DNA of 64,000 bases from an uncultured Bacilli bacterium (GTDB lineage: Bacteria > Bacillota_I > Bacilli_A > RF39 > UBA660). Below the pieces are notes generated by a model. That model did not search any database, was not told the origin of the DNA, and saw only the letters and a program-made list of their open reading frames with translations. Location of the stretch: assembly GCA_947630575.1 (NCBI GenBank), contig CANRIB010000001.1, positions 6,085 through 70,084 on the forward strand, given 5' to 3'. Positions 1 through 64,000 of this stretch are shown here, in pieces; the stretch's first letter is position 1; each line of letters starts with the position of its first letter. Made by a program: the position numbers and the translations under genes.

Positions 1-1
1 A

Positions 2-637
2 ATTAAAGAAGAAATTAAAAGTGTTAATAGATTAGAAAATGCTAGAACGATTGGGGCTAATGGAGTAGTTATTTATTTAGGGCTTAATAGAGCACATGAA
101 GAGTTGGGTTTAAATAATTATAAATATTATCAATTTTTAACTTTAGATAGTGCAACAAATATTAAATATATGAATAGTTTAAATCATAGTACTTGGGTTG
201 GATATGTGCCTAATGTAGTAAACGAAGATGCTAGTCCTAAGAATACAACAATATTAGTTTTAAAACAAATATATTTTGAAGATGTATTTAAAAATCAAGG
301 GGCTCAAGATTATGAAACAGTAAAAAATGATATTGCGGATAGATTAATTAGTCAGTTTGAAGAAGCTTTTGGAGTAGATATTAAAGAATATATTGAAGAA
401 ATAGCAATTTCAACACCTTTTACAATTGAGAGAATTACAAATAGTGTTAATGGTAGTATGTATGGGTATATGAAAAAAGGTTATGATAGTAGTATTCATA
501 GAATTATTAGTTATGATGAAGAGAAAGTTCCAGGTGTTAGTTTTGTAGGAGCTAGTGGGCTTTTAGGTTCTGGAATAGATAATGCCTTTTATAGTGGTTA
601 TTATGTAACTAATAAATTATTAAAAGAAAAGGAGTAA
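2..637 (+). CDS. FAD-dependent oxidoreductase (phytoene-desaturase/amine-oxidase-like), C-terminal part; 5' end lies outside the window
   Basis: The frame of ORF 104..637 stays open back to base 2. Family assignment rests only on general resemblance of the C-terminal sequence. Confidence 0.4.
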   Translation: MKEEIKSVNRLENARTIGANGVVIYLGLNRAHEELGLNNYKYYQFLTLDSATNIKYMNSLNHSTWVGYVPNVVNEDASPKNTTILVLKQIYFEDVFKNQGAQDYETVKNDIADRLISQFEEAFGVDIKEYIEEIAISTPFTIERITNSVNGSMYGYMKKGYDSSIHRIISYDEEKVPGVSFVGASGLLGSGIDNAFYSGYYVTNKLLKEKE

Positions 638-642
638 GTTAA

Positions 643-1761
643 ATGACAAAGATAGATGATTTAAAAAAAGAAAGAAAAAGTATTGTTGATACTTATTCCG
701 GTAAAAGAGTTAAAGATACATATATTGATGGAGTTATAAAAAATTTTCAGGATGTTCAATATGTTAAAATAAAAGAAATAATAGAAGAAACTAGTGATAC
801 TAAATCTTTTATTTTAGAGCCTGATTATGATAAAGGAACAAAGGAATTAGCTAGTTTTAGAGCAGGGCAATATATTAGTTTAAAAATGTTTATTGATGGA
901 GCTTATACAACTAGAGCGTATTCTTTATCTTCAGCGCCAAGTAGAATTAATAAAGGGTATAGAATAACGATTAAAAGAGTGCCTGATGGTTTAGTTAGTA
1001 ATATTATGCTTGACCAAATTAAAGTGGGGGATGGACTTACTATTTCCAGACCAATGGGAGATTTTGGTTATAATAAAATAAGGGATGAGAAAAATGTTAT
1101 AGGAATCGCCGGAGGTAGTGGCATAACTCCATTTATGGCTTTAGCTTATGCAGTTCAAGATAAATTAGAAGACTTTAATTTAACCGTTTTTTATTCTGTT
1201 AAAACAGAAGAAGATATTATTTTTAAAAAAGAAATTGAACATTTTAATAAACATTCTAAAAAAGTTAAATTTGTTATTACTTTAACAAGAGAAGAAAAAG
1301 ATGGTTATTTAAATGGACATATTAATAAAGAAATGATGGAACCATATATAAAAGAATTTAATACGGTTTTAATGTGTGGACCTAAAGCTCTTTATAAGAC
1401 TATGAATGAAATATTGGGAGAATTTAATATTCCAAGAAAATGTGTACATTATGAAAATTTCTTTCTTGATTATGAGCCAACCGAAGAAAAAACTTATGAA
1501 TTAAAAGTAATTATGAAAAATGATTTTAAAATAATAAAATGTAAAAGTAATGAAACTTTGTTAGTTTCGATGGAAAAAGCTGGCATTAAAGCACCATCAC
1601 TTTGTAGAGTAGGAATATGTGGTTATTGCAGAAGTGTAATATTGGATGGTAAAATTAAGATGGTAGGGGGAAATATGGAAAAAGCTTTAAGTGAAAATGA
1701 TTATATCCATCCTTGTATTACATATCCCGAAAGTGATATAGTTTTAAGATTAGATATTTAA
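643..1761 (+). CDS. Flavin reductase-type oxidoreductase (FAD/NAD(P)-binding) with C-terminal 2Fe-2S ferredoxin domain
   Basis: RAYSLSS (RxYS FAD motif), GIAGGSGITP (NAD motif), and a C-terminal cysteine cluster CRVGICGYCRS. RBS GGAG lies upstream. Confidence 0.7.
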   Translation: MTKIDDLKKERKSIVDTYSGKRVKDTYIDGVIKNFQDVQYVKIKEIIEETSDTKSFILEPDYDKGTKELASFRAGQYISLKMFIDGAYTTRAYSLSSAPSRINKGYRITIKRVPDGLVSNIMLDQIKVGDGLTISRPMGDFGYNKIRDEKNVIGIAGGSGITPFMALAYAVQDKLEDFNLTVFYSVKTEEDIIFKKEIEHFNKHSKKVKFVITLTREEKDGYLNGHINKEMMEPYIKEFNTVLMCGPKALYKTMNEILGEFNIPRKCVHYENFFLDYEPTEEKTYELKVIMKNDFKIIKCKSNETLLVSMEKAGIKAPSLCRVGICGYCRSVILDGKIKMVGGNMEKALSENDYIHPCITYPESDIVLRLDI

Positions 1762-1768
1762 ATTAAAA

Positions 1769-1952
1769 GGGTTAATCTACTACGTTTAGGATATTTTTGT
1801 TTGAAGACCATCTATTCTTTGTGAATACGAATGGCAACCTCAACAACACGAACGTGAACAACACGAACATCGGTGTGCGCCCAATATCCTAGGATAACTC
1901 ATATATTTGGTTAAGGCTTGGTATAGTAGAACTAGGATACAAGATTAATCCT
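1769..1952 (+). ncRNA. Template-repeat-like cassette RNA A (5' part of the template diverged or truncated)
   Basis: Starts GGTTAATCT and ends AGATTAATCC, which is complementary to the start. 1821-1883 is homologous to the 3' half of the variable tails (AAC-rich, ends GGTGTGCGCCCA). A conserved 3' domain follows. No RBS or ORF. Confidence 0.6.
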
Positions 1953-1973
1953 TAAGTGTTACTTTAAAAAAAT

Positions 1974-2022
1974 AAATACTGATATTATATGTCTTGTATA
2001 TATAATTAAAACAGTATTTTTT
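1974..2022 (+). terminator. Long AT-rich hairpin plus T-run after cassette A
   Basis: AAATACTG ... CAGTATTT stem followed by TTTTT. The same design follows all five cassettes. Confidence 0.55.
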
Positions 2023-2085
2023 ATTTGATATTTTATTATATTTAGTAAAGTATAATTTTTATGATATAATTAAATGGGTTAATCT

Positions 2086-2288
2086 TAGTTTATGGGGTTC
2101 TTTTTAGTCTCCGTATAACTTTTATAACAACGGGTCTAGTCAGTATGCTAACGTGTTCTTTGTGAATTCGAGTGGCAACCTCAACAACAACCCCGTGAAC
2201 AACACGTATGGTGTGCGCCAATATCCTAGGACAACTCATATACTTGATTAAGGTTTAGTATAGTAGACTTAGGATACAAGATTAATCC
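2086..2288 (+). ncRNA. Template-repeat-like cassette RNA B (long form)
   Basis: TGATATAAT extended -10 sits about 7 nt upstream of GGGTTAATCT. The template segment 2107-2220 begins GTCTCCG and ends GTGTGCGCCA, one C short of the consensus, so it is frame-broken and non-coding. Conserved tail ends AGATTAATCC. Confidence 0.65.
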
Positions 2289-2311
2289 TTAAGGATTTCC
2301 TTAGAATATTT

Positions 2312-2358
2312 AATGTTGATATTTTATATCTAGTATATAAAATTATTACAACATTTTT
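2312..2358 (+). terminator. Hairpin terminator after cassette B (may also serve the convergent XRE gene)
   Basis: AATGTTG ... CAACATT stem plus TTTTT. It abuts the stop of the minus-strand CDS at 2357. Confidence 0.5.
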
Positions 2359-2818
2359 ATTTTGTTTTTAAATATTTAGGAGTATTAGTTCGACCTAAGA
2401 GATAGTCGGCAGAGATGTTATATTTTTTGCAGATAGCATAAAGAAAAGAGGTTGTTATTAGTGTTTTGCCACTTTCATAGGCTGCAATAACAGAGTGAGT
2501 TGTATTAAGTAGTTCTGCTAAATTAACTTGAGTAAGTTTATTTTCTTTGCGAAAATTTTTTAATCTTTCACCGGCAATGATTTTGTTTATATCTTTTTTA
2601 ATATTTTTATAATTATTGATATTTGTAAAATTAAACATTTTATCAAAAGATAAATTATAATAATTGCATAATGTATTTAAATGTTTAATGGGTATAATTT
2701 GTAGTTCTTTTTCATATCTAGCATATAGACTATTGCTTATATTTAGAATTTTGGCAACTTGAATTTGCGATAGGCCAATTCTTTCGCGAATATTTATTAA
2801 ATTTTTTCCATAATCCAT
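2357..2818 (-). CDS. XRE-family transcriptional regulator with two helix-turn-helix domains
   Basis: Two repeats of the Cro/C1-type HTH pattern (LSQIQVAKILNISNSLYARYE and LTQVNLAELLNTTHSVIAAYE). Confidence 0.75.
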   Translation of the reverse strand: MDYGKNLINIRERIGLSQIQVAKILNISNSLYARYEKELQIIPIKHLNTLCNYYNLSFDKMFNFTNINNYKNIKKDINKIIAGERLKNFRKENKLTQVNLAELLNTTHSVIAAYESGKTLITTSFLYAICKKYNISADYLLGRTNTPKYLKTK

Positions 2819-2950: not shown

Positions 2951-4384
2951 ATGATTGATAATAAGTCAATTATAAAGAAGGGAAGATTAATGAAAGTAGA
3001 GAGGTTAAGTAAAGGAAAAAGTAAGAGAATAATATTAGCTATAACAATAATAGTATTAGCAATAGGAATAATATATATAACAAATAGCAAAGCAAAATAT
3101 CAAGTAACCAAAAGTGTGCAAATAGTTAATGGTAATGTATCATATAGTCCATATGATTTTAAAATAATGGCTATGTATAAAAATGATGGAGGAGAAGATG
3201 CTCCCATAACAGAAATACCTGAAAATGGATATATGATAGACGAAACGAGGAGTTATTGTTTAAGAAATAATGAACAAATAAAGGGATTATTAAAAACAAT
3301 AAATGGCATTCACATCATATCTAAATTACATAGTAATGATAAATGTTATTTATGGTTTAATAAATCATTTACCGCTGAGGAACGAGTAACAGCTTTAGGC
3401 AAAACAACACAAACTGGCCAAATAAGTTTTGCAGAGTCAGATAAATCAGAACATAAAGATAGTAGTGACAATTCAATCATGTATAGTGGAACAGATAATG
3501 ATGGAATAACATATTACTTTAGAGGAGTAGTAAATGATAATTGGGTAAGATATGGAACTACAAGTGATAATAAAAGTATATGGTGGAGAATCGTTCGAAT
3601 AAATGGAGATGGCACAATAAGAATGATATATGCTGGAACAACAGATTTAAATTCAAATAATCCACCAGGAACAACAGGAACAGATACTCAAATAACAGTT
3701 GATGGAGAAAATACATTTCTTTATTCAAATTATGGATATGGAGATAATAAATATGTAGGCTATCAATATGCAGATAATAATGTACATGGAAAAGGAATAG
3801 ATAGCTATGCAGCAGATAGAGCAAATGAGTGGTTTAAAACAAATTTATTGGAAGAATGGAATAATGGCAATGGCAGAATAGATAATAATGCAGGATTTTG
3901 TGCAGATAGAACATCATATACAGATAATACAGGGACTTCCGAAGGAGGAGGAACCGGAACGACAACAACATATTATGCTGCTTATATAAGATTTCAAAAA
4001 GGGGGAAATTGGCAAAATCCGCAAAAACCAATATTCAAATGTACAAATACTAGTGATTTATTTACATATACAGGAGCAATAAATGGAACAAGGAGTTTAA
4101 CATATCCAGTAGGATTAATAACAGCAGATGAAGTAGTATATGCCGGAGGATTTGGAGGAAAAGATAATTATTCGTATTATTTATTTATAGGCAATGACTA
4201 TTGGACCATGTCTCCGTATTATTTTCGTGGTGCCTATGTTTACGTGTTCTATGTAAATCACAATGGCCAGCTCATTGGTAACCAAGTGAACTACAAGTAT
4301 GGTGTTCGCCCAGTAATAAATTTGAAGGCTGATACCCAATTTACAGGAAATGGAAAATCAGGAAGTCCATTTGTAGTACAATAA
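2951..4384 (+). CDS. Membrane-anchored surface protein, paralog T1, with C-terminal variable tail (alternative start ATG 2990)
   Basis: N-terminal TM segment. Central block YYFRG..NNWV..G....IWWRIVRINGDGTIRMIYAG is shared with the three paralogs. C-terminus reads GLITADEV.YAGG ... YWTMSP-[variable]-GVRPVINLKAD. Confidence 0.85.
   Translation: MIDNKSIIKKGRLMKVERLSKGKSKRIILAITIIVLAIGIIYITNSKAKYQVTKSVQIVNGNVSYSPYDFKIMAMYKNDGGEDAPITEIPENGYMIDETRSYCLRNNEQIKGLLKTINGIHIISKLHSNDKCYLWFNKSFTAEERVTALGKTTQTGQISFAESDKSEHKDSSDNSIMYSGTDNDGITYYFRGVVNDNWVRYGTTSDNKSIWWRIVRINGDGTIRMIYAGTTDLNSNNPPGTTGTDTQITVDGENTFLYSNYGYGDNKYVGYQYADNNVHGKGIDSYAADRANEWFKTNLLEEWNNGNGRIDNNAGFCADRTSYTDNTGTSEGGGTGTTTTYYAAYIRFQKGGNWQNPQKPIFKCTNTSDLFTYTGAINGTRSLTYPVGLITADEVVYAGGFGGKDNYSYYLFIGNDYWTMSPYYFRGAYVYVFYVNHNGQLIGNQVNYKYGVRPVINLKADTQFTGNGKSGSPFVVQ
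4208..4312 (+). other. Variable region VR1 (DGR-like) at the 3' end of T1
   Basis: ATGTCTCCG ... GGTGTTCGCCCA. A GC-rich island homologous to the cassettes. Encodes YYFRGAYVYVFYVNHNGQLIGNQVNYKY. Confidence 0.6.
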
Positions 4385-15097: not shown

Positions 15098-17086
15098 ATG
15101 TTAAGTAAGAAAAGAACAGTAATTATTGTAGAAATAATAATGGTAATACTTGCTATATCAATATTTGGAACTTTTGCTTTTTTATCGACAAGTGGTAAAC
15201 AAGAATTGGCCAATACTTTTACAGCAGGTTGTTTAAGTATAACCATAGAAGAAGAGGGAAGAGCAATTGATTTAGAAAATAGATATCCAGTAACAGATAT
15301 AGAAGGATTAGAACAAGAGGGATATACTTTTAAAATAAAGAATAATTGTAGTAATGATACAAATTATCAAATAAATTTAGAATCATTAAGTGATCCAACA
15401 GCAGATACAACATTAAAAGCCGATTATGTAAGAGTATCCCTTTCAAGTGATACAATGGATAATTTAATAACAACATTAAAAGAAAATGATGTAGCAACAT
15501 ATCATTCAGAAAATGCTTATGTATCTTATAATCTTTATAGTGGAATATTAAAAGGAAGTGCAAGTAAATCATTTACTTTAAAAGAATGGGTAGAATATAA
15601 TACAACCAAAGAAGAAGGAGCAAGTAAAGAATATAAATCACAGATAAATGTTGTAAGTGATACAAGAGTAGAAGTAACCCCAACACCAGAAGTAAAGTTT
15701 ACTTATAGTGATAAAAAATATACAGGAGTATTAACAGAAGAAGCATCAAATGTTAAATATTGTATGACAACAGATAATAAATGTGATGCAAATAAAGATA
15801 TAGAAGTAAGCAATAAAGAAATAACAATAGAGGCAGAAGAAAATGATAATAAACAAATGATATGTACTGAAATAGAAAATAAAACATATTGTAGTAATCC
15901 TGAATTAATAGAAAAAGTAAAACTATGTCCAGAAGGTTGGGATGCTTGTGAAACAATATTAGCCAATAGTGAAATAAAAGGACCAGTTGGAACAATAACA
16001 GGGCCGAGTTGTAATGGAGCAGCAGGAGACTCATCGTGTTATAGCAGTGATACTAAAAAGAATAATATGGGACAGAATGGAGTTTATGATACAGTAGATG
16101 ATTATGGTAAGACATATGTGTTTCGGGGTTTTGTTCAAAATAACTGGTTAAAGTTTGGCAAAGAAAATGGACAAGATATATGGTGGAGAATCATCCGAAT
16201 AAATGGTAATGGAACAATAAGATTAATATATGCTGGAAAGGGTAGTGTTGCTCCAAGTACTAAGACTGCGGATACTCAAATTGGTACTAGTACTTATAAT
16301 ACAAATTATAATGATAATAAATATGTAGGATTTATGTTTGGAACAGCATCAAATGGTAGTGCAAGTAGTGAAGGAACAGCAGGTACTACAGATGGAGCAA
16401 GAAACGGAACCAAGCCAGCCCATTTAAACAAATATGATAGTACTATAAAGGATAAATTAGATGCTTGGTGGGTAACAACAAATTTAGGGGATACTGACCA
16501 AGTAAAACATATAGATATAGAAACAGGATTTTGTAATGATAGAGAACCAGTAAAGTCTGCACATGGTAGTTATGGAACTACTACATACGGAAAAACTCAA
16601 GCAGGATATGCTCCGGCAGATAGAGTATGGCAAAGTGGAAGTACAAGTTATGATTCAACACAAGAACCAACATTAAAATGTGGCGATGATACATCACGTC
16701 AATATGATTTATTTACAGGTACTGATGCAAAAGGAGTTATGGTTGATGGAAAAACAATAGCAGGAAATAATGAATTAACCAATCCAGTAGGCTTAATAAC
16801 AATGGATGAAGTAATATATGCTGGAGGATTCGCAGGTGCAAATAACAATAATTATTGGTTATATACAGGTCAAGATTATTGGACAATGTCTCCGCGTGGC
16901 TTTGGTGACTACTGTGCTTACGTGTTCTATGTGGATTCGTATGGCTACCTCCACTACGACCGCGTGAACGACGCGTTGGGTGTGCGCCCAGTAATAAATC
17001 TGGAAGCTGATACAGTAATTGATACATTAAAGGGAGTAGATTTGGCAAATGGAGGAACTACAGATAATCCATACATAGTCAAATGA
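15098..17086 (+). CDS. Secreted/surface protein, paralog T2, with SipW-type signal peptide and C-terminal variable tail
   Basis: The N-terminus K-K-R...FGTFAFLSTSG...NTFTAG resembles the TasA/camelysin-class signal. The C-terminal roughly 330 aa are near-identical to T4 except for the variable tail. Confidence 0.9.
   Translation: MLSKKRTVIIVEIIMVILAISIFGTFAFLSTSGKQELANTFTAGCLSITIEEEGRAIDLENRYPVTDIEGLEQEGYTFKIKNNCSNDTNYQINLESLSDPTADTTLKADYVRVSLSSDTMDNLITTLKENDVATYHSENAYVSYNLYSGILKGSASKSFTLKEWVEYNTTKEEGASKEYKSQINVVSDTRVEVTPTPEVKFTYSDKKYTGVLTEEASNVKYCMTTDNKCDANKDIEVSNKEITIEAEENDNKQMICTEIENKTYCSNPELIEKVKLCPEGWDACETILANSEIKGPVGTITGPSCNGAAGDSSCYSSDTKKNNMGQNGVYDTVDDYGKTYVFRGFVQNNWLKFGKENGQDIWWRIIRINGNGTIRLIYAGKGSVAPSTKTADTQIGTSTYNTNYNDNKYVGFMFGTASNGSASSEGTAGTTDGARNGTKPAHLNKYDSTIKDKLDAWWVTTNLGDTDQVKHIDIETGFCNDREPVKSAHGSYGTTTYGKTQAGYAPADRVWQSGSTSYDSTQEPTLKCGDDTSRQYDLFTGTDAKGVMVDGKTIAGNNELTNPVGLITMDEVIYAGGFAGANNNNYWLYTGQDYWTMSPRGFGDYCAYVFYVDSYGYLHYDRVNDALGVRPVINLEADTVIDTLKGVDLANGGTTDNPYIVK
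16886..16990 (+). other. Variable region VR2 (DGR-like)
   Basis: ATGTCTCCG ... GGTGTGCGCCCA. Encodes RGFGDYCAYVFYVDSYGYLHYDRVNDAL. The flanks are near-identical to those of VR4. Confidence 0.7.
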
Positions 17087-17140
17087 CGAAGTATGGATTA
17101 GAATACACTTTTCAAGGAGTGTAGCGAGTTTAATTTGAAT

Positions 17141-17183
17141 CTCAAGTCTAAAAAATAATAAATATTAAGGCTTGAGTTTTTTT
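17141..17183 (+). terminator. Rho-independent terminator after T2
   Basis: CTCAAGTC ... GGCTTGAG stem followed by TTTTTTT. Confidence 0.6.
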
Positions 17184-28450: not shown

Positions 28451-28572
28451 AAAAAGCACACTAAGGCTTCAACTGGAGTATTAGTGTGCACAACCAAAAT
28501 ATGGAGTGTACTTAACCATACGAAAGTTAAGTATATCCTTTTTTATTTTATGTAAGTTTCCTTGACAGATAC

Positions 28573-28601
28573 ATAATAACATAAGAATGATTTTTTTTCA
28601 A
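28573..28601 (-). promoter_or_regulatory. Convergent (antisense) promoter of TA-like module 1
   Basis: Minus strand TTGAAA, 17 nt, TATTAT. Confidence 0.45.
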
Positions 28602-28987: not shown

Positions 28988-28993
28988 ATATTC

Positions 28994-33732: not shown

Positions 33733-36099
33733 ATGAAATTTAAAATAACACCTAAAGATTTTTTGATTTTTTGTTTGTATTGTGTTTTATTATTGTATTT
33801 ATGTGCAATAGCAGTGCTTAATTTTTCTTCTTTTTTGAATGATGGAAAGTTTTATGGATTGTTACCATTTAAAGCTTTTACAGGAGATTATATTGTTTTA
33901 ACTTTGTTTATGTTTTTTATTTCTTTAGTTATTATTTTTACAAGTGTTTCTTCATATGTGTTTAATAGAGAAAAGGGGAAAGGATTAGGTATAAAATTAG
34001 GGGAAAAAACAGAAAGTGGTTATGCTAGATGGAGTACAGAAAAAGAAATTAAAACTGATGTAGGAATGGCAAAAGTTGATCCTAAAGCAGAAACTGTTAA
34101 TGCAGCGGGTATTCCTTTAATTAATAATGGAAAAGAAATTTGGGTTGATAATGGAGAATATCATAATTTAGTTATAGGTTCTACGGGTTCAGGTAAAACT
34201 CAGACTGTTGTTAAGCCAATGGTTAATTTACTTGCTAAAAAGGGTGAATCAATGATTATTACAGACCCTAAAGGTGAAATATATAAATATGCGGCAACCG
34301 CGTTAAAAGAAAGAGGATATAAAATTATTGTGCTTAATTTTAGAGAGCCTAATCATGGAAATGCTTGGAATCCTCTTACCCTTCCTTATCGTTATTTTAA
34401 AGAAGGAAATACAGATAAATCAACAGAGTTATTAGATGACGTAGCTTTAAATATTTTATATGATCAATCTAAAAAAGGGGGAGATTCAGAGTTTTGGGAG
34501 AAGAGTGCAGCAGATTATTTTTCAGGTTTAGCTTTAGGTTTATTTTATGATGCAAAAGAAAAAGAAGTTAATTTAAATAGTATTAATTATATGAGTACGA
34601 TTGGAGAAGAAAGATATGCAACTTCAACATATATTAAAGAATATTTTAATATGAAAGGACAAGATTCTAGTCCATATATATTTGCATCAAATACAATTAA
34701 TGCACCAAATGAAACTAGAGGAGGTATTTTATCTACTTTTAGACAAAAGATTAGACTTTTTTCTTCACGAGAAAGTTTAAGTGAAATGCTTGCCTATAGT
34801 GATTTTGATATGGCAAGTATAGGTAAAGAAAAAACAGCAGTATTTATGATTATTCATGATGAAAAGAAAACTTATCATGCTTTAATGACAATATTTATTA
34901 AACAATGTTATGAAACATTGATAGATGTGGCTCAAGAAAATGGAGGGAAACTTCCTTTTAGAACTAATTTTATCTTAGATGAGTTTGCTAATATGCCCCC
35001 ACTTAAAGATGTTGATTCAATGGTAAGTGCAGCGCGTTCAAGAGATATTAGATTTACTTTTATTATTCAAAACTTTGCCCAGTTAAATGATGTTTATGGA
35101 AAAGAAGTAGGAGAAATTATAAAAGGTAACTGTGGTAATTTAGTTTATTTGATATCTACAGAACTTGCAGCATTAGAAGAGATTTCAAAAATGTGTGGGG
35201 AAGTTAAATCTAAAGAAAAAGATAAGACAGTTTCAACACCTTTAGTAACTGTATCAGATTTACAGAAATTAAAATTATTTGAAGCAATTATTATTCGTTT
35301 GAGAAAAAATCCTTTTAGAACAAAGTTAAAACCAGATTTTGAAATGAATTGGGGGATGAATAGAGAAGAAGCTCCATATCCAGAAAGAGAAATTAAGAAA
35401 ATTGAATTATTTGATGTTAAAAATTATGTAACTGAAGAACGTCGTAAACAAATGATGAATAATTTAGAAAATAAAGATATGGATAATCCTTTTGCTAATC
35501 CATTTACTAATCCGTTTGGGCCAAGTAGTTCTTCAACATCATTTGGGGGAATGGGAAGTGTATCACCAATTGGTTCTAATCCTTTTAGTGGTGCTCCAAG
35601 TTCTATTCCAAATTCGGGAGCTTCACCATTTAGTCATAATCCAATGTTTGATAAGCCAATGAGTAGTTTATCAGATGCCGATATAGATGCAATGATGAAA
35701 GATATTGATAGAAGACTTAAAGAACTTGATGAAGAAGAAGCTAGAGAAAATGCTAAATTGGAAGAAAAGAAAAATAATTCCGATAATTTAGTAACTAATC
35801 CATTACAAAGTAGGGAAGAAAATAAAGAGGATACTTTAGAACAAAAATTTATTACAGAGAATCCTATTAAAGAACAACCAATTAATGAAGATAAAAAAAT
35901 AGAAGAAGTTAATGATAGTTCTTTGAAGCAAGAAGTTAAACCAAGTATTTTAGAACAAGATAATAAAATAGATACTCAACCTATAAACCAAGAAGGAAAT
36001 CAAGATAAACCAAAAATAAATGTGGATGCTGATAGTATCATTGTTAATGAAAATGTAGTTACTGATGATGAGTTCTTTGATGATTTCTTTAATGAATAA
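33733..36099 (+). CDS. VirD4/TraG-family type IV coupling protein-like ATPase with low-complexity C-terminal tail
   Basis: Two N-terminal TM helices, Walker A GSTGSGKT, TDPKGE, and Walker B FILDEFANMP. C-terminal NPF/Ser/Pro-rich and acidic tail. Confidence 0.8.
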   Translation: MKFKITPKDFLIFCLYCVLLLYLCAIAVLNFSSFLNDGKFYGLLPFKAFTGDYIVLTLFMFFISLVIIFTSVSSYVFNREKGKGLGIKLGEKTESGYARWSTEKEIKTDVGMAKVDPKAETVNAAGIPLINNGKEIWVDNGEYHNLVIGSTGSGKTQTVVKPMVNLLAKKGESMIITDPKGEIYKYAATALKERGYKIIVLNFREPNHGNAWNPLTLPYRYFKEGNTDKSTELLDDVALNILYDQSKKGGDSEFWEKSAADYFSGLALGLFYDAKEKEVNLNSINYMSTIGEERYATSTYIKEYFNMKGQDSSPYIFASNTINAPNETRGGILSTFRQKIRLFSSRESLSEMLAYSDFDMASIGKEKTAVFMIIHDEKKTYHALMTIFIKQCYETLIDVAQENGGKLPFRTNFILDEFANMPPLKDVDSMVSAARSRDIRFTFIIQNFAQLNDVYGKEVGEIIKGNCGNLVYLISTELAALEEISKMCGEVKSKEKDKTVSTPLVTVSDLQKLKLFEAIIIRLRKNPFRTKLKPDFEMNWGMNREEAPYPEREIKKIELFDVKNYVTEERRKQMMNNLENKDMDNPFANPFTNPFGPSSSSTSFGGMGSVSPIGSNPFSGAPSSIPNSGASPFSHNPMFDKPMSSLSDADIDAMMKDIDRRLKELDEEEARENAKLEEKKNNSDNLVTNPLQSREENKEDTLEQKFITENPIKEQPINEDKKIEEVNDSSLKQEVKPSILEQDNKIDTQPINQEGNQDKPKINVDADSIIVNENVVTDDEFFDDFFNE

Positions 36100-36975: not shown

Positions 36976-38415
36976 ATGAAAAGGATAATTTTAGTAATAG
37001 TAGGAATACTAGGTGTTTTTGGTGTAGTTTTATTGTTTGGAAGAGAAGAGAATAAAAGTGTTTATTTGACAAATAAAGAATTAAAAGAAAATAATTATAT
37101 AGCGGTTATGATAGAACAAGAAGATGGAAATTATCAGGAACAAGATAATATACCACAAACTGGGTATGCACTAAATGAAAGCAAAAGTACATGTAGTAAT
37201 GGAGCAAAACCAACATGGGTAGATAATAGATTAAAATTAAGTAATTTAACAAGTGACAATACAAGTTGTTTTTTGTATTTTGATAAAGGATTAGCAACAA
37301 AATTGGTTGATAGTTTAGGACTGACGACAAAAAAAGGACAAGATGGATTTACAGACATGGATACAGAAGAACATACAGATGAAAATGAGAAATCAATATT
37401 ATATAGTGATGAAGATGATTTAGGAACAACATATTATTTTAGAGGAAAAGTAAAAGACAATTGGGTAAAATTTGGCAAAGAAAATGGTCAAGATATATGG
37501 TGGAGAATCATTCGAATCAATGGCAATGGTTCAATAAGAATGATATATACAGGAACGGGAACAACTGCACCAACAACAGATGGATATTTAAATAATAATA
37601 CAACAAAAAGTCAGTTAAATAGTGGAAGTACAACAACTTTTAAATATAATGAATACTATAATGATAATAAATATGTAGGATATATGTATGGGACTCAGAA
37701 AACAGGTAGTGCTGGTAGTGAAACTACACCAACGACTAGTTATGCCCAAGCTCATGCAAATAATTATGATAGTGATATAAAAAAACAACTAGATACTTGG
37801 TATAGTACTAATTTAAAAAATGAATATGGACAATATATAGACCCAGATGCAGGATTTTGTAATGATAGAAAAACAGCAACAATGAGTAGAAGTGGGTATG
37901 GAACATTAGGATATGGAAAAAATGCAACGGCATATGCAGCAGGAGATAGATTACTAGATACAAGTTGGAATGCTAATACAAAACATACACCAACATTCAA
38001 GTGTAGTCAAACAGAAGATACATTCACACTTCCAGGAGCAAAAAAACCAGATGGAAGTTATTATGGAAATCATAAATTAAGAGCTAATAATGGGTCAGGT
38101 GATAATAGTCCAATAGGATTGATAACAATAGATGAGGCTGTATTTGCTGGAGGGTATTATTATAGATCAAGTAATCAATCTGACAATAAACAATTTTACT
38201 TATATACAGGCCAGAATTATTGGATAATGTCTCCGTCTTACTTTGACGGCAGCAATGCTAGCGTGTTCTATGTGAGTTACGATGGCCACCTCGGCGGCTA
38301 CAACTACGTGTGCAGCACGAATGGTGTGCGCCCAGTAATAAATCTGAAGGCTGATACAAAATTATCAGGAGATGGAACACACACTAATCCATATGTAGTA
38401 GAAGGAGCTAATTAA
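36976..38415 (+). CDS. Membrane-anchored surface protein, paralog T3, with C-terminal variable tail
   Basis: N-terminal TM segment, the shared central block (YYFRGKVKDNWVKFGKENGQDIWWRIIRINGNGSIRMIYTG), and C-terminal YWIMSP-[variable]-GVRPVINLKAD. Confidence 0.9.
   Translation: MKRIILVIVGILGVFGVVLLFGREENKSVYLTNKELKENNYIAVMIEQEDGNYQEQDNIPQTGYALNESKSTCSNGAKPTWVDNRLKLSNLTSDNTSCFLYFDKGLATKLVDSLGLTTKKGQDGFTDMDTEEHTDENEKSILYSDEDDLGTTYYFRGKVKDNWVKFGKENGQDIWWRIIRINGNGSIRMIYTGTGTTAPTTDGYLNNNTTKSQLNSGSTTTFKYNEYYNDNKYVGYMYGTQKTGSAGSETTPTTSYAQAHANNYDSDIKKQLDTWYSTNLKNEYGQYIDPDAGFCNDRKTATMSRSGYGTLGYGKNATAYAAGDRLLDTSWNANTKHTPTFKCSQTEDTFTLPGAKKPDGSYYGNHKLRANNGSGDNSPIGLITIDEAVFAGGYYYRSSNQSDNKQFYLYTGQNYWIMSPSYFDGSNASVFYVSYDGHLGGYNYVCSTNGVRPVINLKADTKLSGDGTHTNPYVVEGAN
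38227..38334 (+). other. Variable region VR3 (DGR-like)
   Basis: ATGTCTCCG ... GGTGTGCGCCCA. Encodes SYFDGSNASVFYVSYDGHLGGYNYVCSTN. Best local match is cassette D. Confidence 0.7.
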
Positions 38416-38416: not shown

Positions 38417-40432
38417 ATGAAAGATAAGAATAAAAGATTATATATATTAGTATCTATTCTATTAATAGGAGTAGGATTGACATTTGCATATTTTGTAGGA
38501 AAAACTATTTTTAAGGGAACAGGAGCAACAACAGAGGGAAGAACGGCAACCGTAAATGGTTCCACATTAGATATAAGTGGTAATATAGAGTTTGGTGATA
38601 AAGATATATATCCAGGACATCAAACATTATCCAAAGTAATAGCAACTGCAACAGGTAATAATGAACTTATCGCGTATAACTTAACATGGATAGGAACAAA
38701 TAATTTAAATACTAATTTAAAATATAAAGTATATGTATCAGAAGAAGAAAAAGAAATAAGTTTAACTTGTGAAAAGAAAAAGAAAGTAGTAAATGGAGCC
38801 CAACAATTAAATGAGGTATGTATAATAAATGGAGAATTAGGAGAACCAATAAATGAAGGAGAGATACCATCAAAACCAAAAGAAGAACAAACAATAAAGA
38901 TAACTAATACAGAATTTATAACATCAAAGAAAACAGGAACAATAAAATATTATTATATCATAGTAGAATATCCAGATAATGGAGATCAAAGTATAGATAT
39001 AGGAGAAGGATTTGAAGGAAAAGTATATGGAGAGATAAGTAATACAAAAGCCGATATAAATATAATAAGTGTAAATGTAGAGGGAGAAGATGGGAAATAT
39101 ACAAAACAAAGTGAAATACCAAAACAAGATAGTAATTTAACACTAAATACAAGTGATAGTCATTGTACAAATGATGCAACATTAGAATGGGATAATAGTG
39201 ATAGGAGTTTAATAGTAAATAATCTAACACAAAGTGGAACAGATTGTGAATTATATTTTTATGAGCCGACACCAGAAAAGACATTAAAAAAATTAGGAAT
39301 ATCAGAATCCGATGGAGTTATAACAGATATTACAGGTCCAAGTTGTAGTGGAAGTACTTCTTCGTCATGTTATAGTGGTGACTCTAGTCATAAAAATATG
39401 GCTCAAAATGGAATATATGATACAGTGGATGATTATGGAAAGAGCTATGTATATCGCGGTTTTGTTCAAAATAACTGGTTAAAGTTTGGCAAAGAAAATG
39501 GACAAGATATATGGTGGCGAATCATCCGAATAAATGGCAATGGAACAATAAGATTAATATATGCTGGAAAGGGTAGTACTGCTCCAAGTACTACGACTGC
39601 GGATACTCAAATTGGTACTAGTGCTTATAATACAAATTATAATGATAATAAATATGTAGGATTTATGTTTGGAACAGCATCAAATGGTAGTGCAAGTAGT
39701 GAAGGAACAGCAGGTACTACAGATGGAGCAAGAAACGGAACCAAGCCAGCCCATTTAAACAAATATGATAGTACTATAAAGGATAAATTAGATGCTTGGT
39801 GGGTAACAACAAATTTAGGGGATACTGACCAAGTAAAACATATAGATATAGAAACAGGATTTTGTAATGATAGAGAACCAGTAAAGTCTGCACATGGTAG
39901 TTATGGAACTACTACATACGGAAAAACTCAAGCAGGATATGCTCCGGCAGATAGAGTATGGCAAAGTGGAAGTACAAGTTATGATTCAACACAAGAACCA
40001 ACATTAAAATGTGGCGATGATACATCACGTCAATATGATTTATTTACAGGTACTGATGCAAAAGGAGTTATGGTTGATGGAAAAACAATAGCAGGAAATC
40101 ATGCATTAACCAATCCAGTAGGCTTAATAACAATGGATGAAGTAATTTATGCTGGAGGATTCGCAGGTGCAAATAACAATAATTATTGGTTATATACAGG
40201 TCAATATTATTGGACAATGTCTCCGTCTTGCTTTTATAACAGCGGGTCTAGTCAGTATGCTCGGGTGTTCATTGTGACTACGGATGGCAACCTCAACGAC
40301 CCGAACGTGAACAGCTCGAGCATCGGTGTGCGCCCAGTAATAAATCTGAAGGCTGATACAGTAATTGATACATTAAGGGGAGGAGATTTGGCAAATGGAG
40401 GAACTACAGATAATCCATACATAGTCAAATGA
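38417..40432 (+). CDS. Secreted/surface protein, paralog T4, with SipW-type signal peptide and C-terminal variable tail
   Basis: Starts 1 nt after the T3 stop. N-terminus ...GVGLTFAYFVGKT. C-terminal two-thirds are near-identical to T2 outside the variable tail. Confidence 0.9.
   Translation: MKDKNKRLYILVSILLIGVGLTFAYFVGKTIFKGTGATTEGRTATVNGSTLDISGNIEFGDKDIYPGHQTLSKVIATATGNNELIAYNLTWIGTNNLNTNLKYKVYVSEEEKEISLTCEKKKKVVNGAQQLNEVCIINGELGEPINEGEIPSKPKEEQTIKITNTEFITSKKTGTIKYYYIIVEYPDNGDQSIDIGEGFEGKVYGEISNTKADINIISVNVEGEDGKYTKQSEIPKQDSNLTLNTSDSHCTNDATLEWDNSDRSLIVNNLTQSGTDCELYFYEPTPEKTLKKLGISESDGVITDITGPSCSGSTSSSCYSGDSSHKNMAQNGIYDTVDDYGKSYVYRGFVQNNWLKFGKENGQDIWWRIIRINGNGTIRLIYAGKGSTAPSTTTADTQIGTSAYNTNYNDNKYVGFMFGTASNGSASSEGTAGTTDGARNGTKPAHLNKYDSTIKDKLDAWWVTTNLGDTDQVKHIDIETGFCNDREPVKSAHGSYGTTTYGKTQAGYAPADRVWQSGSTSYDSTQEPTLKCGDDTSRQYDLFTGTDAKGVMVDGKTIAGNHALTNPVGLITMDEVIYAGGFAGANNNNYWLYTGQYYWTMSPSCFYNSGSSQYARVFIVTTDGNLNDPNVNSSSIGVRPVINLKADTVIDTLRGGDLANGGTTDNPYIVK
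40217..40336 (+). other. Variable region VR4 (DGR-like, long form)
   Basis: ATGTCTCCG ... GGTGTGCGCCCA. Encodes SCFYNSGSSQYARVFIVTTDGNLNDPNVNSSSI. The 5' part matches cassette B and the 3' part matches cassette A. Confidence 0.75.
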
Positions 40433-40684
40433 CGAAGTATGGATTAGTAAACACTTTTCAAGGAGTGTAGCGTGGTGCTATCAATTTGATTCTCAAACCT
40501 AGATAGCATTTGAATTAAGCAAATAAATGAGGTTTAAGTTTTCTTTTTAAATTTTGGTGGGAATAACAATGTAGCAGTTATTCTCTTTTTTTGTAAATAA
40601 AATTATTAGTACTTGCATATTTTTGCTATATGTGATATATTTTAATTGTACTAGTGCATGTAATACAATAAAGGAGGAGATTAA

Positions 40685-44092: not shown

Positions 44093-45420
44093 TATAATAT
44101 GGGCAATTTATTTGTCAAAATTGATATTTATAGTTAGTAGTTATAAATATCTTTTTTTTAAATTAATATTTTAATAATGAGTCATTAAGAATGACATCAT
44201 CAGGTTTAATATAATAACAATTAAGTTTTTTTAAAATATATTCGTCACATAGAAATAACATTGCTTCATAAGGAGACTTACCATTTAAAGAATCGCGACA
44301 TAAACTGTTAATATTATTCATAAATAAATCACAATCTTTTTGGGTAATATTTTTAAAAGAAGAACCTTTTGGTAAAATATAACGAATAAATTCATGGTTT
44401 TTCTCTATGCCTCCTTTTTGCCAAGAAGCAGAAGGATCACAAAAGAAAAGATGAGTAACATATTCACCAGTTTCATGAATATACTCAATATTATTGACAT
44501 CAAAAAATTCATGACCATTGTCAGTGAGAATAATTGGAAATAGTTTTTTATAATCTTCTTCAGGTATAAAAGTTTGAAGAATGCTAAATATTCTAGTTAC
44601 TTCTTCAGTAGTTTGAGATTCCAATTTAAATATAAGCATAAAATTAGATTTTCTCCAAAAAAGAGTAAGAAAGCAATCTTCTTCAGTTTGTAATCCTTCA
44701 ACAGTATCCATTTCAACAATATTTAAATAAGGATTTCTAGATGTATAATCTAAGAAATCAGTATATTTTCTATTAATCAAAATTTCTCTTTCTTTTCTAG
44801 TTCTTCTATTAGGATTATTTTTTCTTTTTTTATATTTAACAATTCTAGGAAAATCCAAAGGTCCAAATTCAAATACACCATTATTAACATACTTATAAAA
44901 AGAACTTTTACTAAAATCAAGAATATCAGGATGGTTAATATATAAATGATTTATAGTTTGTCCTTTTTTTACAAGTGGATAGATAATTTCATTTATTTTA
45001 TAAATTTCATCGTAGTTTAAATTAATACCTTGTCTAGATGATTTAATTAATTCATCATATGATTTTTGAGCTTCTCTTGCGTAATAAGTCCATCTAATCT
45101 TTCTACAACCACTTCTAGATTTGCAGCCATTACAAACATAAGGAGAGTGTTCCAATCTTTCACAAGATAAATCTAAACCAGGGTGATTAATTTTATAATT
45201 ATTCCAACTAGATGGTTCAGAATATTTTTTGTTTCTATCTATTTCTCTTAAAATAGAAGAGTGACATCTATTAATTTCTTTAGCAATTTGATTGATAGAT
45301 TTATTATCATTTAATCCATCTTCAATATTTTTTCTATCTTCATAAGATAGATGACAATAATTTGCCATAGTATATAATACCTCCTTTATATGACAAATAA
45401 ATTGCTTGAGAGATATTATA
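44093..45420 (-). mobile_element. IS30-family insertion sequence (ends approximate; minimal element 44103-45405)
   Basis: The 15-bp terminal inverted repeat GCAATTTATTTGTCA (44103-44117) / TGACAAATAAATTGC (45391-45405) brackets a single transposase gene. A possible outer extension, TATAATAT, is present on both sides. Confidence 0.75.
44163..45368 (-). CDS. IS30-family transposase
   Basis: N-terminal HTH (SINQIAKEINRCHSSILREIDRN) and a C-terminal DDE-type integrase core (TDNGHEF ...). Confidence 0.85.
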   Translation of the reverse strand: MANYCHLSYEDRKNIEDGLNDNKSINQIAKEINRCHSSILREIDRNKKYSEPSSWNNYKINHPGLDLSCERLEHSPYVCNGCKSRSGCRKIRWTYYAREAQKSYDELIKSSRQGINLNYDEIYKINEIIYPLVKKGQTINHLYINHPDILDFSKSSFYKYVNNGVFEFGPLDFPRIVKYKKRKNNPNRRTRKEREILINRKYTDFLDYTSRNPYLNIVEMDTVEGLQTEEDCFLTLFWRKSNFMLIFKLESQTTEEVTRIFSILQTFIPEEDYKKLFPIILTDNGHEFFDVNNIEYIHETGEYVTHLFFCDPSASWQKGGIEKNHEFIRYILPKGSSFKNITQKDCDLFMNNINSLCRDSLNGKSPYEAMLFLCDEYILKKLNCYYIKPDDVILNDSLLKY

Positions 45421-45559: not shown

Positions 45560-45988
45560 GTGAATGGAATGAATAATAAAAGTGGTTTTACTTTAGTGGA
45601 ATTGTTAAGTGTTATAGTTATTTTATCAGTAGTTGTTTTAATTGCAACAAATGCGGTAGTGCCAATGATGAATGATGCTAGAAGACAAGTTTTAGCAACA
45701 GAAGCAAATAAGTTTATGATGGCTGCTCAAAATTTATATGTTAAAGATAATGCGAGTGGAACAAAATGTTATTCTTATGAAGAAGTAATTAATTCAGGTT
45801 TAATTGAAAAAAATGATGAAGCTTATGCTGGTAGTTTTCTAATTGAAAGTAATGGAGAAGGAAAATATACTTATAAAATATGGCTTTCAAATGGAACTAA
45901 TGCAGTTTTAGGAAAAAGTCCTGATGTGACAAGTAAAGATGTTATAGATTCTTCTGATGATGCATCACAGAGTTGTGAAGTAAATTAA
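45560..45988 (+). CDS. Type IV pilin/pseudopilin-like protein (prepilin N-terminal methylation motif; likely start ATG 45569)
   Basis: KSGFTLVELLSVIVILSVVVLIA is the class III signal (G/FTLVE). Confidence 0.8.
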   Translation: MNGMNNKSGFTLVELLSVIVILSVVVLIATNAVVPMMNDARRQVLATEANKFMMAAQNLYVKDNASGTKCYSYEEVINSGLIEKNDEAYAGSFLIESNGEGKYTYKIWLSNGTNAVLGKSPDVTSKDVIDSSDDASQSCEVN

Positions 45989-46741: not shown

Positions 46742-46946
46742 TTTTTTCCTCCTTCTCTAGAGATTTTTATACCTCTATCTTTAATATGTAAATATTTGAC
46801 ATATTTATACATAAAAATACAAAAATAGACAAGAAATTTAAATGATTTATAAATTATATATGTATATACGCAGATAGAAATTTATGAAAGATGTGGTTTA
46901 TAAAATAAGTGCTTAAAAAATAATAAATTAATGATATAATTATAAT

Positions 46947-47149
46947 GGTTAATCTGTTTAAGTGTATTGGTATTAGTCTTTGTATAACGCTGACTCTGAT
47001 GGTTATGCTCGCGTGTTCATTGTGAATTCGACTGGCAACCTCAACACCAACAACGTGAACAACACGTGGGGTGTGCGCCCAATATCCTTTTTAAAACTCA
47101 TATATCTGGTTAAGGCTTGGTATAGTAGAACTAGGATACAAGATTAATC
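46947..47149 (+). ncRNA. Template-repeat-like cassette RNA C
   Basis: TGATATAATTATAAT precedes GGTTAATCT. The template segment 46976-47081 starts GTCTTTG instead of GTCTCCG and ends GGTGTGCGCCCA. Conserved tail ends AGATTAATC. Confidence 0.65.
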
Positions 47150-47174
47150 ATTGGTTTTAGGACTTAAAAAAAAT

Positions 47175-47220
47175 AATGCTGATATTATTTATCTTGAATA
47201 AGTAATTATTACAGCATTTT
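47175..47220 (+). terminator. Hairpin terminator after cassette C
   Basis: AATGCTG ... CAGCATT stem plus TTTT. Confidence 0.55.
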
Positions 47221-47279
47221 TATTTTGGAAGTAATACTTCATTGACCAAAAAATGGCTATTTTGTTATATTGACCCTAA

Positions 47280-48203
47280 ATGGAGGTTTTTAAGATGGAA
47301 CAGTATAATGAGGTAGAACATTTAATAAAAAAATTAGAAATAAATAAGAGAGCTAGAGTATTACAAGATAATAGAGAAACATTAGATACTTATTGGAATA
47401 TAGGAAGACTAATTGTAGAAGCTCAAGGAGGCAAAGAAAGAGCTAAATATGGAGATAATTTAATTAAAGAGTGGAGTAAAAAACTAATTGTTTATGGAAC
47501 AAATTACAAAATGACAAGCCTTAAATATTTTAGATTATTTTATTTAACGTTTAGAAATGGTCAGCCGTTGGCTGACCAATTAAGTTGGAGTCATTACCAA
47601 GAATTGTTACCAATCAAAGATGAAAATAAAAGAAATTATTATATAAATTTATGTATAACTAATAGTTTGTCAAAAAGAAAATTGAGAGAGGAAATAAAAA
47701 ATAAAAGTTATGAAAGATTATTAGAAAAAAGAGAACATATAGAAATAATAAATAATAAAGAAGAAATATATAATATAAAAGAACATATAAAAAATCCCAT
47801 AATAATAAAATTATCAAAAGAAGAACAAATAAAAAAAGAAAAAGAACTACAATTAATTATTTTATCTAAATTAAAAGATTTTTTTATGGAATTAGGATAT
47901 GGTTATGCATATATAGAAAATGAGTATAAAATAAAAATAAATAATAAAATATATAGAATAGATATATTATTATTTAATTATAATCTTAATGCTTTTGTAG
48001 TAGTAGAATTAAAGATGCGAGAATTAAAAAAAGAAGATAAAGCTCAAATAGAGTTTTATATGGAATATATAGATAATAACTTAAAAAGAAGTTTTCATAA
48101 TAAAACAATAGGAATAATAATAACAAAAGAGCAAGATAAATTTATCTTATCATTTGTTAGTCAAAATAATATAATACCTATTACTTATAAAGTTAAAAGT
48201 TAA
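47280..48203 (+). CDS. DUF1016/YhcG-like PD-(D/E)XK nuclease family protein
   Basis: N-terminal ...TYWNIGRLIVEAQGG..RAKYGDNLIKEWSKKL pattern and a C-terminal RIDILLFNY..NAFVVVELK nuclease core. Confidence 0.65.
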   Translation: MEVFKMEQYNEVEHLIKKLEINKRARVLQDNRETLDTYWNIGRLIVEAQGGKERAKYGDNLIKEWSKKLIVYGTNYKMTSLKYFRLFYLTFRNGQPLADQLSWSHYQELLPIKDENKRNYYINLCITNSLSKRKLREEIKNKSYERLLEKREHIEIINNKEEIYNIKEHIKNPIIIKLSKEEQIKKEKELQLIILSKLKDFFMELGYGYAYIENEYKIKINNKIYRIDILLFNYNLNAFVVVELKMRELKKEDKAQIEFYMEYIDNNLKRSFHNKTIGIIITKEQDKFILSFVSQNNIIPITYKVKS

Positions 48204-62561: not shown

Positions 62562-62588
62562 TAAATGCTTTTTTAAAGGAGTTTTGGG

Positions 62589-63191
62589 ATGGATATTATT
62601 TTAAATGGGGATTTATATGTTAAGTTAACTAATGAAGTAGTTTATGTTTTAGAAGAAAATGATAAAACAAAAGCAATTATTAAAGATATTATGGGTGATG
62701 TTAAAGATAATGAGGAAGAATTATTAGCTTTAGCAAGTTTTAAATTTGCCCAAATTATGGATAAACTTATAGAAGAACAATTACTTTATAAGGAAGAAGA
62801 AAGTCTAGATAAAAATGGCTTTTATAAAATATTTTATACGGGTAATGAAGTAATCATGATGAGTGATGAAGAAAATATAAAATATAATTCTTTAGAAGAA
62901 GTAAATAAAAAATATATTAATTTAAGAGATTTTTTAATAAGAGCAACTTTAGTTGGAAGATATTTAGAACCAATTAAAGATAATCTGCCAAGATATGCGG
63001 TAATTTATGAATATGAAGATTGCTTATTATTACATAATTTAAATAATGGGATGTTTACTACTGTAAATGCTAAATCAAGTATTTTAAATAATTATTTTTT
63101 AGGGGATAATCTAATAGAAGAATATAAAAAAGAAGATGTATATCAAACTATAGTTAATCAAGAATTAAAAAAGGGTAAGTCAAGAAATTAA
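62589..63191 (+). CDS. Hypothetical protein
   Basis: ORF with RBS AAGGAG. No motifs. Confidence 0.5.
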   Translation: MDIILNGDLYVKLTNEVVYVLEENDKTKAIIKDIMGDVKDNEEELLALASFKFAQIMDKLIEEQLLYKEEESLDKNGFYKIFYTGNEVIMMSDEENIKYNSLEEVNKKYINLRDFLIRATLVGRYLEPIKDNLPRYAVIYEYEDCLLLHNLNNGMFTTVNAKSSILNNYFLGDNLIEEYKKEDVYQTIVNQELKKGKSRN

Positions 63192-63238
63192 TATTTATAA
63201 TTGTTTTATTAAGATTATTGATATATAATTATAATAGA

Positions 63239-63432
63239 GGTTAATCTATTATCTCGTGACATGTCTCCGTATAACTTTAACGGCAGCAATGCTAACGTGT
63301 TCTATGTGAATTCGAATGGCAACCTCGGCAACAACAACGTGAACAACACGAATGGTGTGCGCCCAATATCCTTGAATACCTCATATATCTGGTTAAGGCT
63401 TGGTATAGTAGAACTAGGATACAAGATTAATC
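63239..63432 (+). ncRNA. Template-repeat-like cassette RNA D
   Basis: -10 boxes (TATATAATTATAAT) precede GGTTAATCT. In the template segment 63261-63365, 13 of 35 codons are AAC/AAT in the target frame. Conserved tail ends AGATTAATC. Confidence 0.7.
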
Positions 63433-63455
63433 TTTAGTAGTTTACTAAAATAAAT

Positions 63456-63505
63456 GATGCTGATATTATTTATCTTGAATAAGTAATTATTACAGCATCT
63501 TTTTT
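63456..63505 (+). terminator. Hairpin terminator after cassette D
   Basis: GATGCTG ... CAGCATC stem plus TTTTTT. Confidence 0.6.
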
Positions 63506-63534
63506 GATGGTAGTAAGTGTGATATAATTATAAT

Positions 63535-63729
63535 GGTTAATCTATTTTGGTTAGTTAGTCTCCGCGTAACTTTGATGGCAGCAATGCTAACGTGTTCTAT
63601 GTGTCTTCGGATGGCTACCTCAACAACAACACCGTGAACAACACGAGTAATGGTGTGCGCCCAATATCCTAAAGAAACTCATATACTTGATTAAGGTTTA
63701 GTATAGTAGGCTAGGATACAAGATTAATC
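63535..63729 (+). ncRNA. Template-repeat-like cassette RNA E
   Basis: GTGATATAATTATAAT precedes GGTTAATCT. Template segment is 63558-63663. Conserved tail ends AGATTAATC. Confidence 0.7.
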
Positions 63730-63754
63730 ATTAGTTTAAAAACTTAAAAAATAT

Positions 63755-63802
63755 AGTATTGATATTATATGTCTTAGTATATATAATTATAACAATATTT
63801 TT
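63755..63802 (+). terminator. Hairpin terminator after cassette E
   Basis: AGTATTG ... CAATATT stem (one G-U pair) plus TTTTT. Confidence 0.5.
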
Positions 63803-63851
63803 GATAATTGTTAATAAATTAGAAAAGTGATAAAATTAGATTAGAGGAGGT

Positions 63852-64000
63852 ATGATTTTGGAATATTTAATAACTTTTATTGAGGGATTAGCTTCTTTTA
63901 TTTCTCCTTGTGTTCTTCCAATTATTCCAGTATATATTTCTTATTTTGGAGTGGAAAGTAAGGAAGAGAAAAAAGCTCTTATTAATTCTTTAGGTTTTGT
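63852..64000 (+). CDS. ccdA: Cytochrome c biogenesis protein CcdA/DsbD-family, N-terminal part (runs off the window; TTG 63858 may be the start)
   Basis: FIEGLASFISPCVLPIIPVYISYF is the characteristic first TM segment with the conserved Cys. Confidence 0.7.
   Translation, partial: MILEYLITFIEGLASFISPCVLPIIPVYISYFGVESKEEKKALINSLGF

Follow-up and report, generated by a model that had tools for sequence, protein, structure and literature searches.

In the diversity-generating retroelement (DGR) of Bordetella phage BPP-1, which works through the reverse transcriptase (RT) bRT, the protein Avd and the avd-TR-Sp RNA (TR, template repeat), sequence passes from template to variable region (VR) with changes specific to adenines, up to a GC-rich 3' boundary. 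A single template lies between avd and brt, is transcribed with them and stands beside a single target. The DGRs of Treponema denticola, Thiohalocapsa PB-PSB1 and Trichodesmium combine one RT module with several paralogous remote targets, although normally it is only the targets that are remote and the template is still found next to the RT. Remote targets are known, as is action in trans of DGR components, for which an 'RT and/or TR encoded elsewhere' has been proposed previously (PMC5758913; PMC10907252). Surveys have also counted DGRs with more than one TR, for example in Stenotrophomonas SKA14 (PMC6642488), but reports of this type give TR counts inside RT-containing cassettes and describe no independent units, structured tail or dispersal. 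In full-text searches of the literature we came upon no account of template-RNA genes that are dispersed and transcribed individually, or of templates apart from the RT.

The stretch of DNA analysed here, 64,000 nucleotides (nt) of an uncultured Bacilli bacterium (the window; GenBank assembly GCA_947630575.1, contig CANRIB010000001.1, positions 6,085 to 70,084), resembles the BPP-1 DGR in its adenine-specific transfer and GC-rich boundary and differs from all of these systems in layout. In place of the one co-transcribed template of BPP-1 it has five separate template genes spread over 62 kb, each with a terminator-like hairpin and all except the first (c1) with a -10 box of their own, while no RT or Avd gene is found in the 64 kb; compared with the Treponema, Thiohalocapsa and Trichodesmium systems, the templates themselves have been multiplied and dispersed, and one VR appears to be written by more than one of them. 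The window system is a new architectural variant of the DGR. Because the templates and targets are here and the RT is absent, an RT that uses them has to be encoded at another locus and work from a distance. We regard it as probable that the templates and targets in the window belong to a DGR whose accessory-bAvd-RT module is encoded elsewhere on the chromosome and acts in trans.

The frame formed by the two cassette arms, GGTTAATCT...AGATTAATC, occurs five times in the window, always on the plus strand (0.9 matches to the first arm are expected by chance). An nhmmer profile made from 30 cassettes matched exactly five full-length cassettes in the window, plus four partial matches confined to the template part, so the count of five templates and four targets given in the initial annotation is correct and, by this search, complete for the window (Table 1). 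The cassettes are compact (about 180-210 nt), are not themselves open reading frames (ORFs), and have a common order of parts: -10 box, 5' arm, template, conserved structured tail, 3' arm, hairpin with an A-run, and terminator-like hairpin. Their templates are rich in AAC and end at the 3' side in GGTGTGCGCCCAATA.

Table 1. Template cassettes and target genes of the window (aa, amino acids).
Feature	Coordinates	Strand	Description
Cassette c1	1770-2024	+	RNA core 1770-1950; short template of ~74 nt (1813-1886); terminator-like hairpin after; profile match to model positions 1-194
Cassette c2	2062-2365	+	TG-extended -10 box TGATATAAT at 2062-2070; RNA core 2077-2287; then hairpin and T-run
Cassette c3	46932-47225	+	TGATATAAT at 46932-46940; RNA core 46947-47149; then hairpin and T-run
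Cassette c4	63215-63510	+	TATAAT-type -10 box; RNA core 63239-63432; short hairpin with A-run; long hairpin and T-run
Cassette c5	63520-63805	+	TGATATAAT at 63520-63528; RNA core 63535-63729; then hairpin and T-run
Target 1	2951-4384	+	477 aa; membrane anchor at the N terminus; DUF6273-type domain at the C terminus, with GVRPVINL at its end; VR1 ~4204-4315
Target 2	15098-17086	+	662 aa; VR2 ~16881-16993
Target 3	36976-38415	+	479 aa; VR3 ~38220-38337
Target 4	38417-40432	+	671 aa; VR4 ~40205-40339

Scans with consensus promoters and terminators were uninformative in DNA this rich in AT, as the match counts were near those of shuffled sequences and the AT-rich terminator stems fell below the GC rule. 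Transcription signals were judged instead by the conservation of the TG-extended -10 box and by direct folding. In c2, c3 and c5 the TG-extended box ends 6-7 nt short of the 5' arm, and the box of c4 is a plain TATAAT; among cassettes with a -10 box, it mostly lies 6-8 nt upstream of the arm. On the other side, folding gave a short hairpin with an A-run 3' of the 3' arm, followed by a long two-part hairpin and a T-run. Cassette c1 lacks its own promoter. Its start lies 8 nt past the stop codon of the ORF at 643-1761, so that it probably shares the transcript of that gene, and in other genomes, too, some cassettes begin right after the stop codon of an upstream gene. To judge from these signals, the cassettes are autonomous DGR RNA genes, each transcribed separately except for c1, which would be carried on the transcript of the upstream gene. 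Rfam 15 holds no family for the cassettes: only a tRNA in the window matched at the gathering score, and the c4/c5 region gave nothing at E <= 1 except a chance microRNA match.

The four VRs all lie within the last ~60 codons of paralogous ORFs, before the GVRPVINL motif. Pfam DUF6273 is matched weakly by these proteins (E = 1e-5 to 3e-3) and not at all by target 4, no solved-structure relative of the targets was found by sequence, and the family of target 3 has more than 5000 relatives. Homology between VRs and templates ends at the GC-rich boundary, GGTGT(G/T)CGCCCAGTA (...CCCAGTA) in the VRs and GGTGTGCGCCCAATA in the templates, and the sequences diverge beyond it. A stable GC-rich hairpin such as BPP-1 is described to have directly after the VR boundary is not evident; the stable stems near the targets are at least 75 nt downstream of the boundary, near the gene ends.

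The differences between template and VR are those of a DGR. Cassette c4 is the best donor for VR3, from which it differs at 13 of 34 adenine sites and 2 of 74 other sites (Fisher P = 3e-6), and for VR2 (21 of 34 against 7 of 74; P = 3e-8), while c1 is the best donor for the 3' part of VR4 (9 of 26 adenine sites, 1 of 48 others; P = 2e-4). The odds ratios for adenine-specific differences are 15-25, and codon positions 1 and 2 hold both the template adenines and the A-to-N changes, the pattern of AAC-type codons. VR1 compared with c4 has no such bias (13 of 34 adenine sites and 17 of 75 others; P = 0.07). The earlier statement that the expressed copies differ from the cassettes at adenines therefore holds for VR2, VR3 and VR4 and fails for VR1: either this VR is inactive or its template lies elsewhere.

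VR4 is a mosaic. Its 5' part has a 12-nt insert common only to c2 and VR4, and shows six A-to-N changes and one non-A change relative to c2; its 3' part has a 3-nt insert otherwise confined to c1. In both parts the differences from the donors are almost solely at adenines. VR4 thus looks like c2-type followed by c1-type sequence, that is, two templates in one VR, although it may instead derive from one unseen cassette that combines the two inserts. Target 4 is followed by an ABC transporter, and in another sample the gene upstream of this transporter has a target 2-type 3' end and VR, 98.9% identical (locus L017, 1-1024, against 16127-17145 and 39458-40480 of the window). Either two paralogous targets have recombined or the assembly is chimeric at this point.

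The tail that follows the template can be folded into three helices. In P1 the 5' arm GGTTAATCT pairs with the 3' arm AGATTAATC; in P3 the TATCCT directly after the template pairs with an AGGATA that ends 2 nt before the 3' arm; and P2, enclosed by P3, is a conserved hairpin with a TTAAGG loop. When this model was tested on an alignment of 20 window-type cassettes from six genomes, 94% of cells were paired, and compensatory changes occurred in eight pairs, a result matched by none of 500 shuffles. Control models with the 3' partners slid by 1-3 columns paired only 26-42% of cells. RNAalifold applied to 30 cassettes of the window type and the sister type described below also recovered P1, and four double changes between the types keep its pairing.

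The cryo-EM structure of the Bordetella RT-Avd-RNA complex contains a template:primer duplex and, 2 nt later, an upstream:downstream duplex ('cPRT Stop') followed by a short stem-loop and adenosines, with an Avd-binding stem-loop just downstream of the template; such elements were predicted in 207 of 278 DGRs (bioRxiv 10.1101/2023.10.23.563531). The Bordetella RT-Avd complex requires these RNA elements, and the cassettes have theirs in the order of the Bordetella RNA, including the 2-nt spacing. By this analogy, we infer that P3 would be the template:primer duplex, P2 the Avd-binding stem-loop and P1 the stop duplex.

The initial annotation had found no RT or Avd gene in the 64 kb, and this was borne out by every search that we made. 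Among 66 non-nested ORFs of at least 70 aa (18,500 residues), none matched Pfam models for RVT_1, Avd/bAvd or HRDC; neither PF05635 nor bAvd was found in the window; and the ORFs left without a Pfam match gave nothing related to an RT in NCBIfam or PADLOC. A six-frame motif scan found no RT-like context, its sole Y-x-D-D match being in an ABC-2 permease-like ORF. Searches by tblastn with four RTs, four Avds and the accessory proteins of related genomes carrying homologous cassettes gave no match at E < 0.01 in the window or in its extensions of ~2-2.7 kb.

In relatives, homologous cassettes are linked to an RT. A homologue of target 3 led to a contig from the Hadza gut with a canonical target-accessory-bAvd-RT-template locus, in which the tail of the template resembles that of the window cassettes. 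Related genomes carry a sister type of cassette, with arms GGTAATCTT...AAGATTATC, a boundary ending ...CGGTTCGCCC, a TTAAGR-loop hairpin, a hairpin with an A-run and a terminator-like hairpin, and one to four of these lie 0.3-4.3 kb upstream of an accessory-bAvd-RT operon (two in locus L028, one in L036, one in L037/L041, four over 4 kb in L042, and copies also in several metagenome loci). The operon encodes a 129-aa accessory protein, bAvd, an RT of 370-380 aa and an ORF of ~100 aa. In the relatives examined it always stands beside HIGH_NTase1, miaA, a transglutaminase-core gene, rpsT and spoIIP, and its surroundings are free of phage genes. The best solved-structure match of this RT is the Bordetella DGR RT, 8ub7 (E = 3e-24).

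Cassettes of the window type can be aligned with those of the sister type from end to end, and one profile matches both. They have the same RNA gene design, DUF6273-type targets and several cassettes per genome in common, and they differ in their arms, in their boundary, which is GGTGTGCGCCC in the window type, and in their placement: the sister type is clustered upstream of the accessory-bAvd-RT genes, whereas the window type has no RT link in any stretch seen. A further 80 loci came from metagenome contigs searched with an RT profile; in many of them one template unit of the same family lies upstream of the RT at a distance of ~1 kb, or else directly downstream of it. It follows that this DGR clade is characterized by self-contained template genes in several copies. 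In the lineage of the window the template genes are dispersed, not clustered at the RT. In two metagenome loci with the same RT family, the RT is preceded by template-like units, three or four in tandem, that match the template part of the profile only (L104, 18-712; L103, 8323-8786), and these may be template arrays of another layout.

When species-representative genomes were scanned with the last 30 nt of the tail as the search pattern, nine loci were found in five species-level genomes of uncultured Bacilli; the genomes with window-type cassettes are MGBC129856, CANQBY, CANRBQ, CANQMC and CANOGG. The loci hold one to four cassettes each, and one genome has at least six. Identity within those 30 nt is given by the search; outside the pattern the tail has high identity and compensatory changes, while the flanking genes are 69-90% identical. 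The same pattern had no match in 2.9 million viral contigs and none in the metagenome collection, and BLAST of a cassette against phage and plasmid collections returned chance matches only. At one conserved site, downstream of rpmA and a 200-aa ORF, there is one cassette in CANRBQ, two in the window (63239-63729) and three in MGBC129856, with a c4 orthologue at the same site in both relatives (L005, 2234-4274; L010, 366-2027). Since copy number differs between close relatives at this conserved site, cassette duplication appears to be recent. One of the MGBC129856 cassettes (L010, 366-558, minus strand) has a degenerate 5' arm, GATTAATAT, and an intact tail, and its template looks like a VR, as it contains few AAC codons and differs from the neighbouring cassettes at many non-A sites; it is either a decaying template or a template that has itself been overwritten.

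In the mechanism that we propose, the -10 box would set the 5' end of the RNA at the arm GGTTAATCT, with c1 riding on the upstream transcript. The RT-Avd complex, made elsewhere, would bind the cassette tail and prime cDNA synthesis in cis; the template would be copied with misincorporation opposite adenines, and synthesis would stop at P1. The cDNA would then replace the homologous 3' region, bounded by GGTGTGCGCCCAGTA, of any of the four paralogous surface-protein genes. As different templates serve the same gene family, one VR would be open to several templates and could be rewritten by more than one of them. The suggestion in the initial annotation that an RT acts in trans by recognizing the conserved tail is thus the one that we favour, given the covarying tail, the Bordetella-like layout and the homologous cassettes adjacent to RTs. 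The siting of the RT on a prophage or plasmid, which it gave as possible, is not, since the operon of the relatives is chromosomal. It had also raised the prospect of an RT-proximal cassette with the frame GGTTAATCT...AGATTAATC; none was found, and those linked to an RT carry the sister frame.

Several observations weigh against an RT acting in trans from elsewhere on the chromosome. We infer the presence and location of the RT in this genome, and hence its action in trans: searches based on the relatives located no RT of this organism's genome, and three RT variants from the same study occur in samples other than those of the window contigs. No window-type cassette stands next to any RT seen, every RT-linked cassette being of the sister type, and the RT is absent from the 8-kb stretches of all nine window-type loci in the five genomes. 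The consensus sequences of VR1, the VR2 type and VR4 are identical in other samples of the study, seemingly of one strain, so that at the consensus level no sign of ongoing diversification is seen. VR1 lacks an adenine bias relative to any window cassette and VR2 has seven non-A mismatches. Finally, the helices were assigned to their protein partners by topology alone.

Some of these observations would be expected if the system had decayed, the RT-Avd genes having been lost in this lineage and the cassettes and VRs being leftovers of past DGR activity. The missing RT (in the window, in its extensions and near the window-type cassettes of five related genomes), the lost bias of VR1 and the VRs that are identical between samples all fit such a history, and there is a precedent in Treponema denticola isolates with leftover targets lacking both RT and template (PMC4891356). 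However, the tails have been conserved outside the 30-nt pattern, with three helices kept by compensatory changes while the neighbouring protein genes are 69-90% identical; the templates retain their AAC-rich design, -10 boxes and terminator-like hairpins; close relatives have one, two or three copies at a conserved site; and three VRs still differ from templates almost only at adenines, a pattern that would blur after loss of the RT. We therefore consider decay unlikely. Supply of RT-Avd from a mobile source, whether a prophage, a plasmid or an integrative element, that is present in only some cells or strains seems to us slightly less likely again. A variable supply would explain static VRs in some populations, as well as the lack of an RT in any chromosomal stretch seen for the window-type genomes, but the operon of the relatives is at one conserved chromosomal site with no phage genes near, the tail pattern is unmatched in the viral contigs, and the cassette has no relevant match in phage or plasmid collections.

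Gene conversion independent of an RT, in which silent donors recombine into expressed genes in the style of Neisseria pilS/pilE or Borrelia vls, was the alternative named in the initial annotation. Several dispersed donors for a paralogous surface-protein family, the mosaic VR4 and the hint of recombination between paralogous targets in L017 are all in keeping with it. We nevertheless reject it as very improbable, because the differences are adenine-specific, with odds ratios that homologous recombination does not yield. In addition, the donors carry -10 boxes and terminator-like hairpins, and their structured non-coding tail, which is better conserved than the template, is irrelevant to recombination of DNA; the same cassette family is physically linked to RT-Avd genes in relatives. 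Action in trans of a chromosomal accessory-bAvd-RT module remains the reading that we prefer.

A wider form of this reading, which we hold with rather less confidence and only somewhat above even, is that of a chromosome-wide template library, with many autonomous template-RNA genes at conserved loci, varying in copy number, used combinatorially by one distant RT-Avd so that the VRs become patchworks. If true, such a library would join cassette-style antigenic variation to adenine mutagenesis. If several templates feed the same targets, the accessible sequence space is template choice multiplied by adenine mutagenesis and is larger than that of a DGR with one template. Pipelines for DGR detection begin at the RT and then seek a nearby template, so a system whose templates are separate RNA genes at a distance of tens of kb or more would escape them or be recorded as incomplete. 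The compact cassette, with all presumed recognition elements, also offers a natural definition of the minimal RNA for a DGR RT-Avd complex. Tools for DGR mutagenesis in vivo currently depend on the Bordetella avd-TR-Sp context, and such a minimal RNA would be useful for making them reprogrammable.

The window has a G+C content of 26.5%, and a Pfam scan of its ORFs found the housekeeping genes era, recO, ybeY, mraZ, rsmH, mreC, efp, rplU, rpmA, yqfD and yabP and genes for penicillin-binding proteins (PBPs). This gene content indicates that the host is a wall-bearing, spore-forming, low-GC Firmicute. Identical stretches of the window DNA occur in several assemblies of one gut metagenome study, and the nearest genomes are those of uncultured Bacilli from rabbit and mouse gut.

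Three genes among the housekeeping genes and near targets 3 and 4 encode a TraG/VirD4-type coupling protein, which stands alone and has a long tail of low complexity, an IS30-like transposase and a protein with a prepilin-type N-methylation motif (33733-36099, 44163-45368 and 45560-45988). Just downstream of cassette c3 is a gene for a YhcG/DUF1016 PD-(D/E)XK nuclease (47280-48203), which belongs to the PADLOC candidate defence family PDC-S02, and in the relative L042 (3335-6191) PDDEXK_2 genes lie between the RT-linked cassettes. The spread of cassettes may be linked to PD-(D/E)XK nuclease or transposase-like genes. A 901-aa ORF on the minus strand (29080-31785) has no match in Pfam, NCBIfam or PADLOC; it is flanked by direct repeats of ~320 nt (28721-29040 and 31987-32300), with a tRNA-Thr gene adjoining (32374-32447, minus strand), and the region 28499-32447 could be an inserted element of unknown kind.

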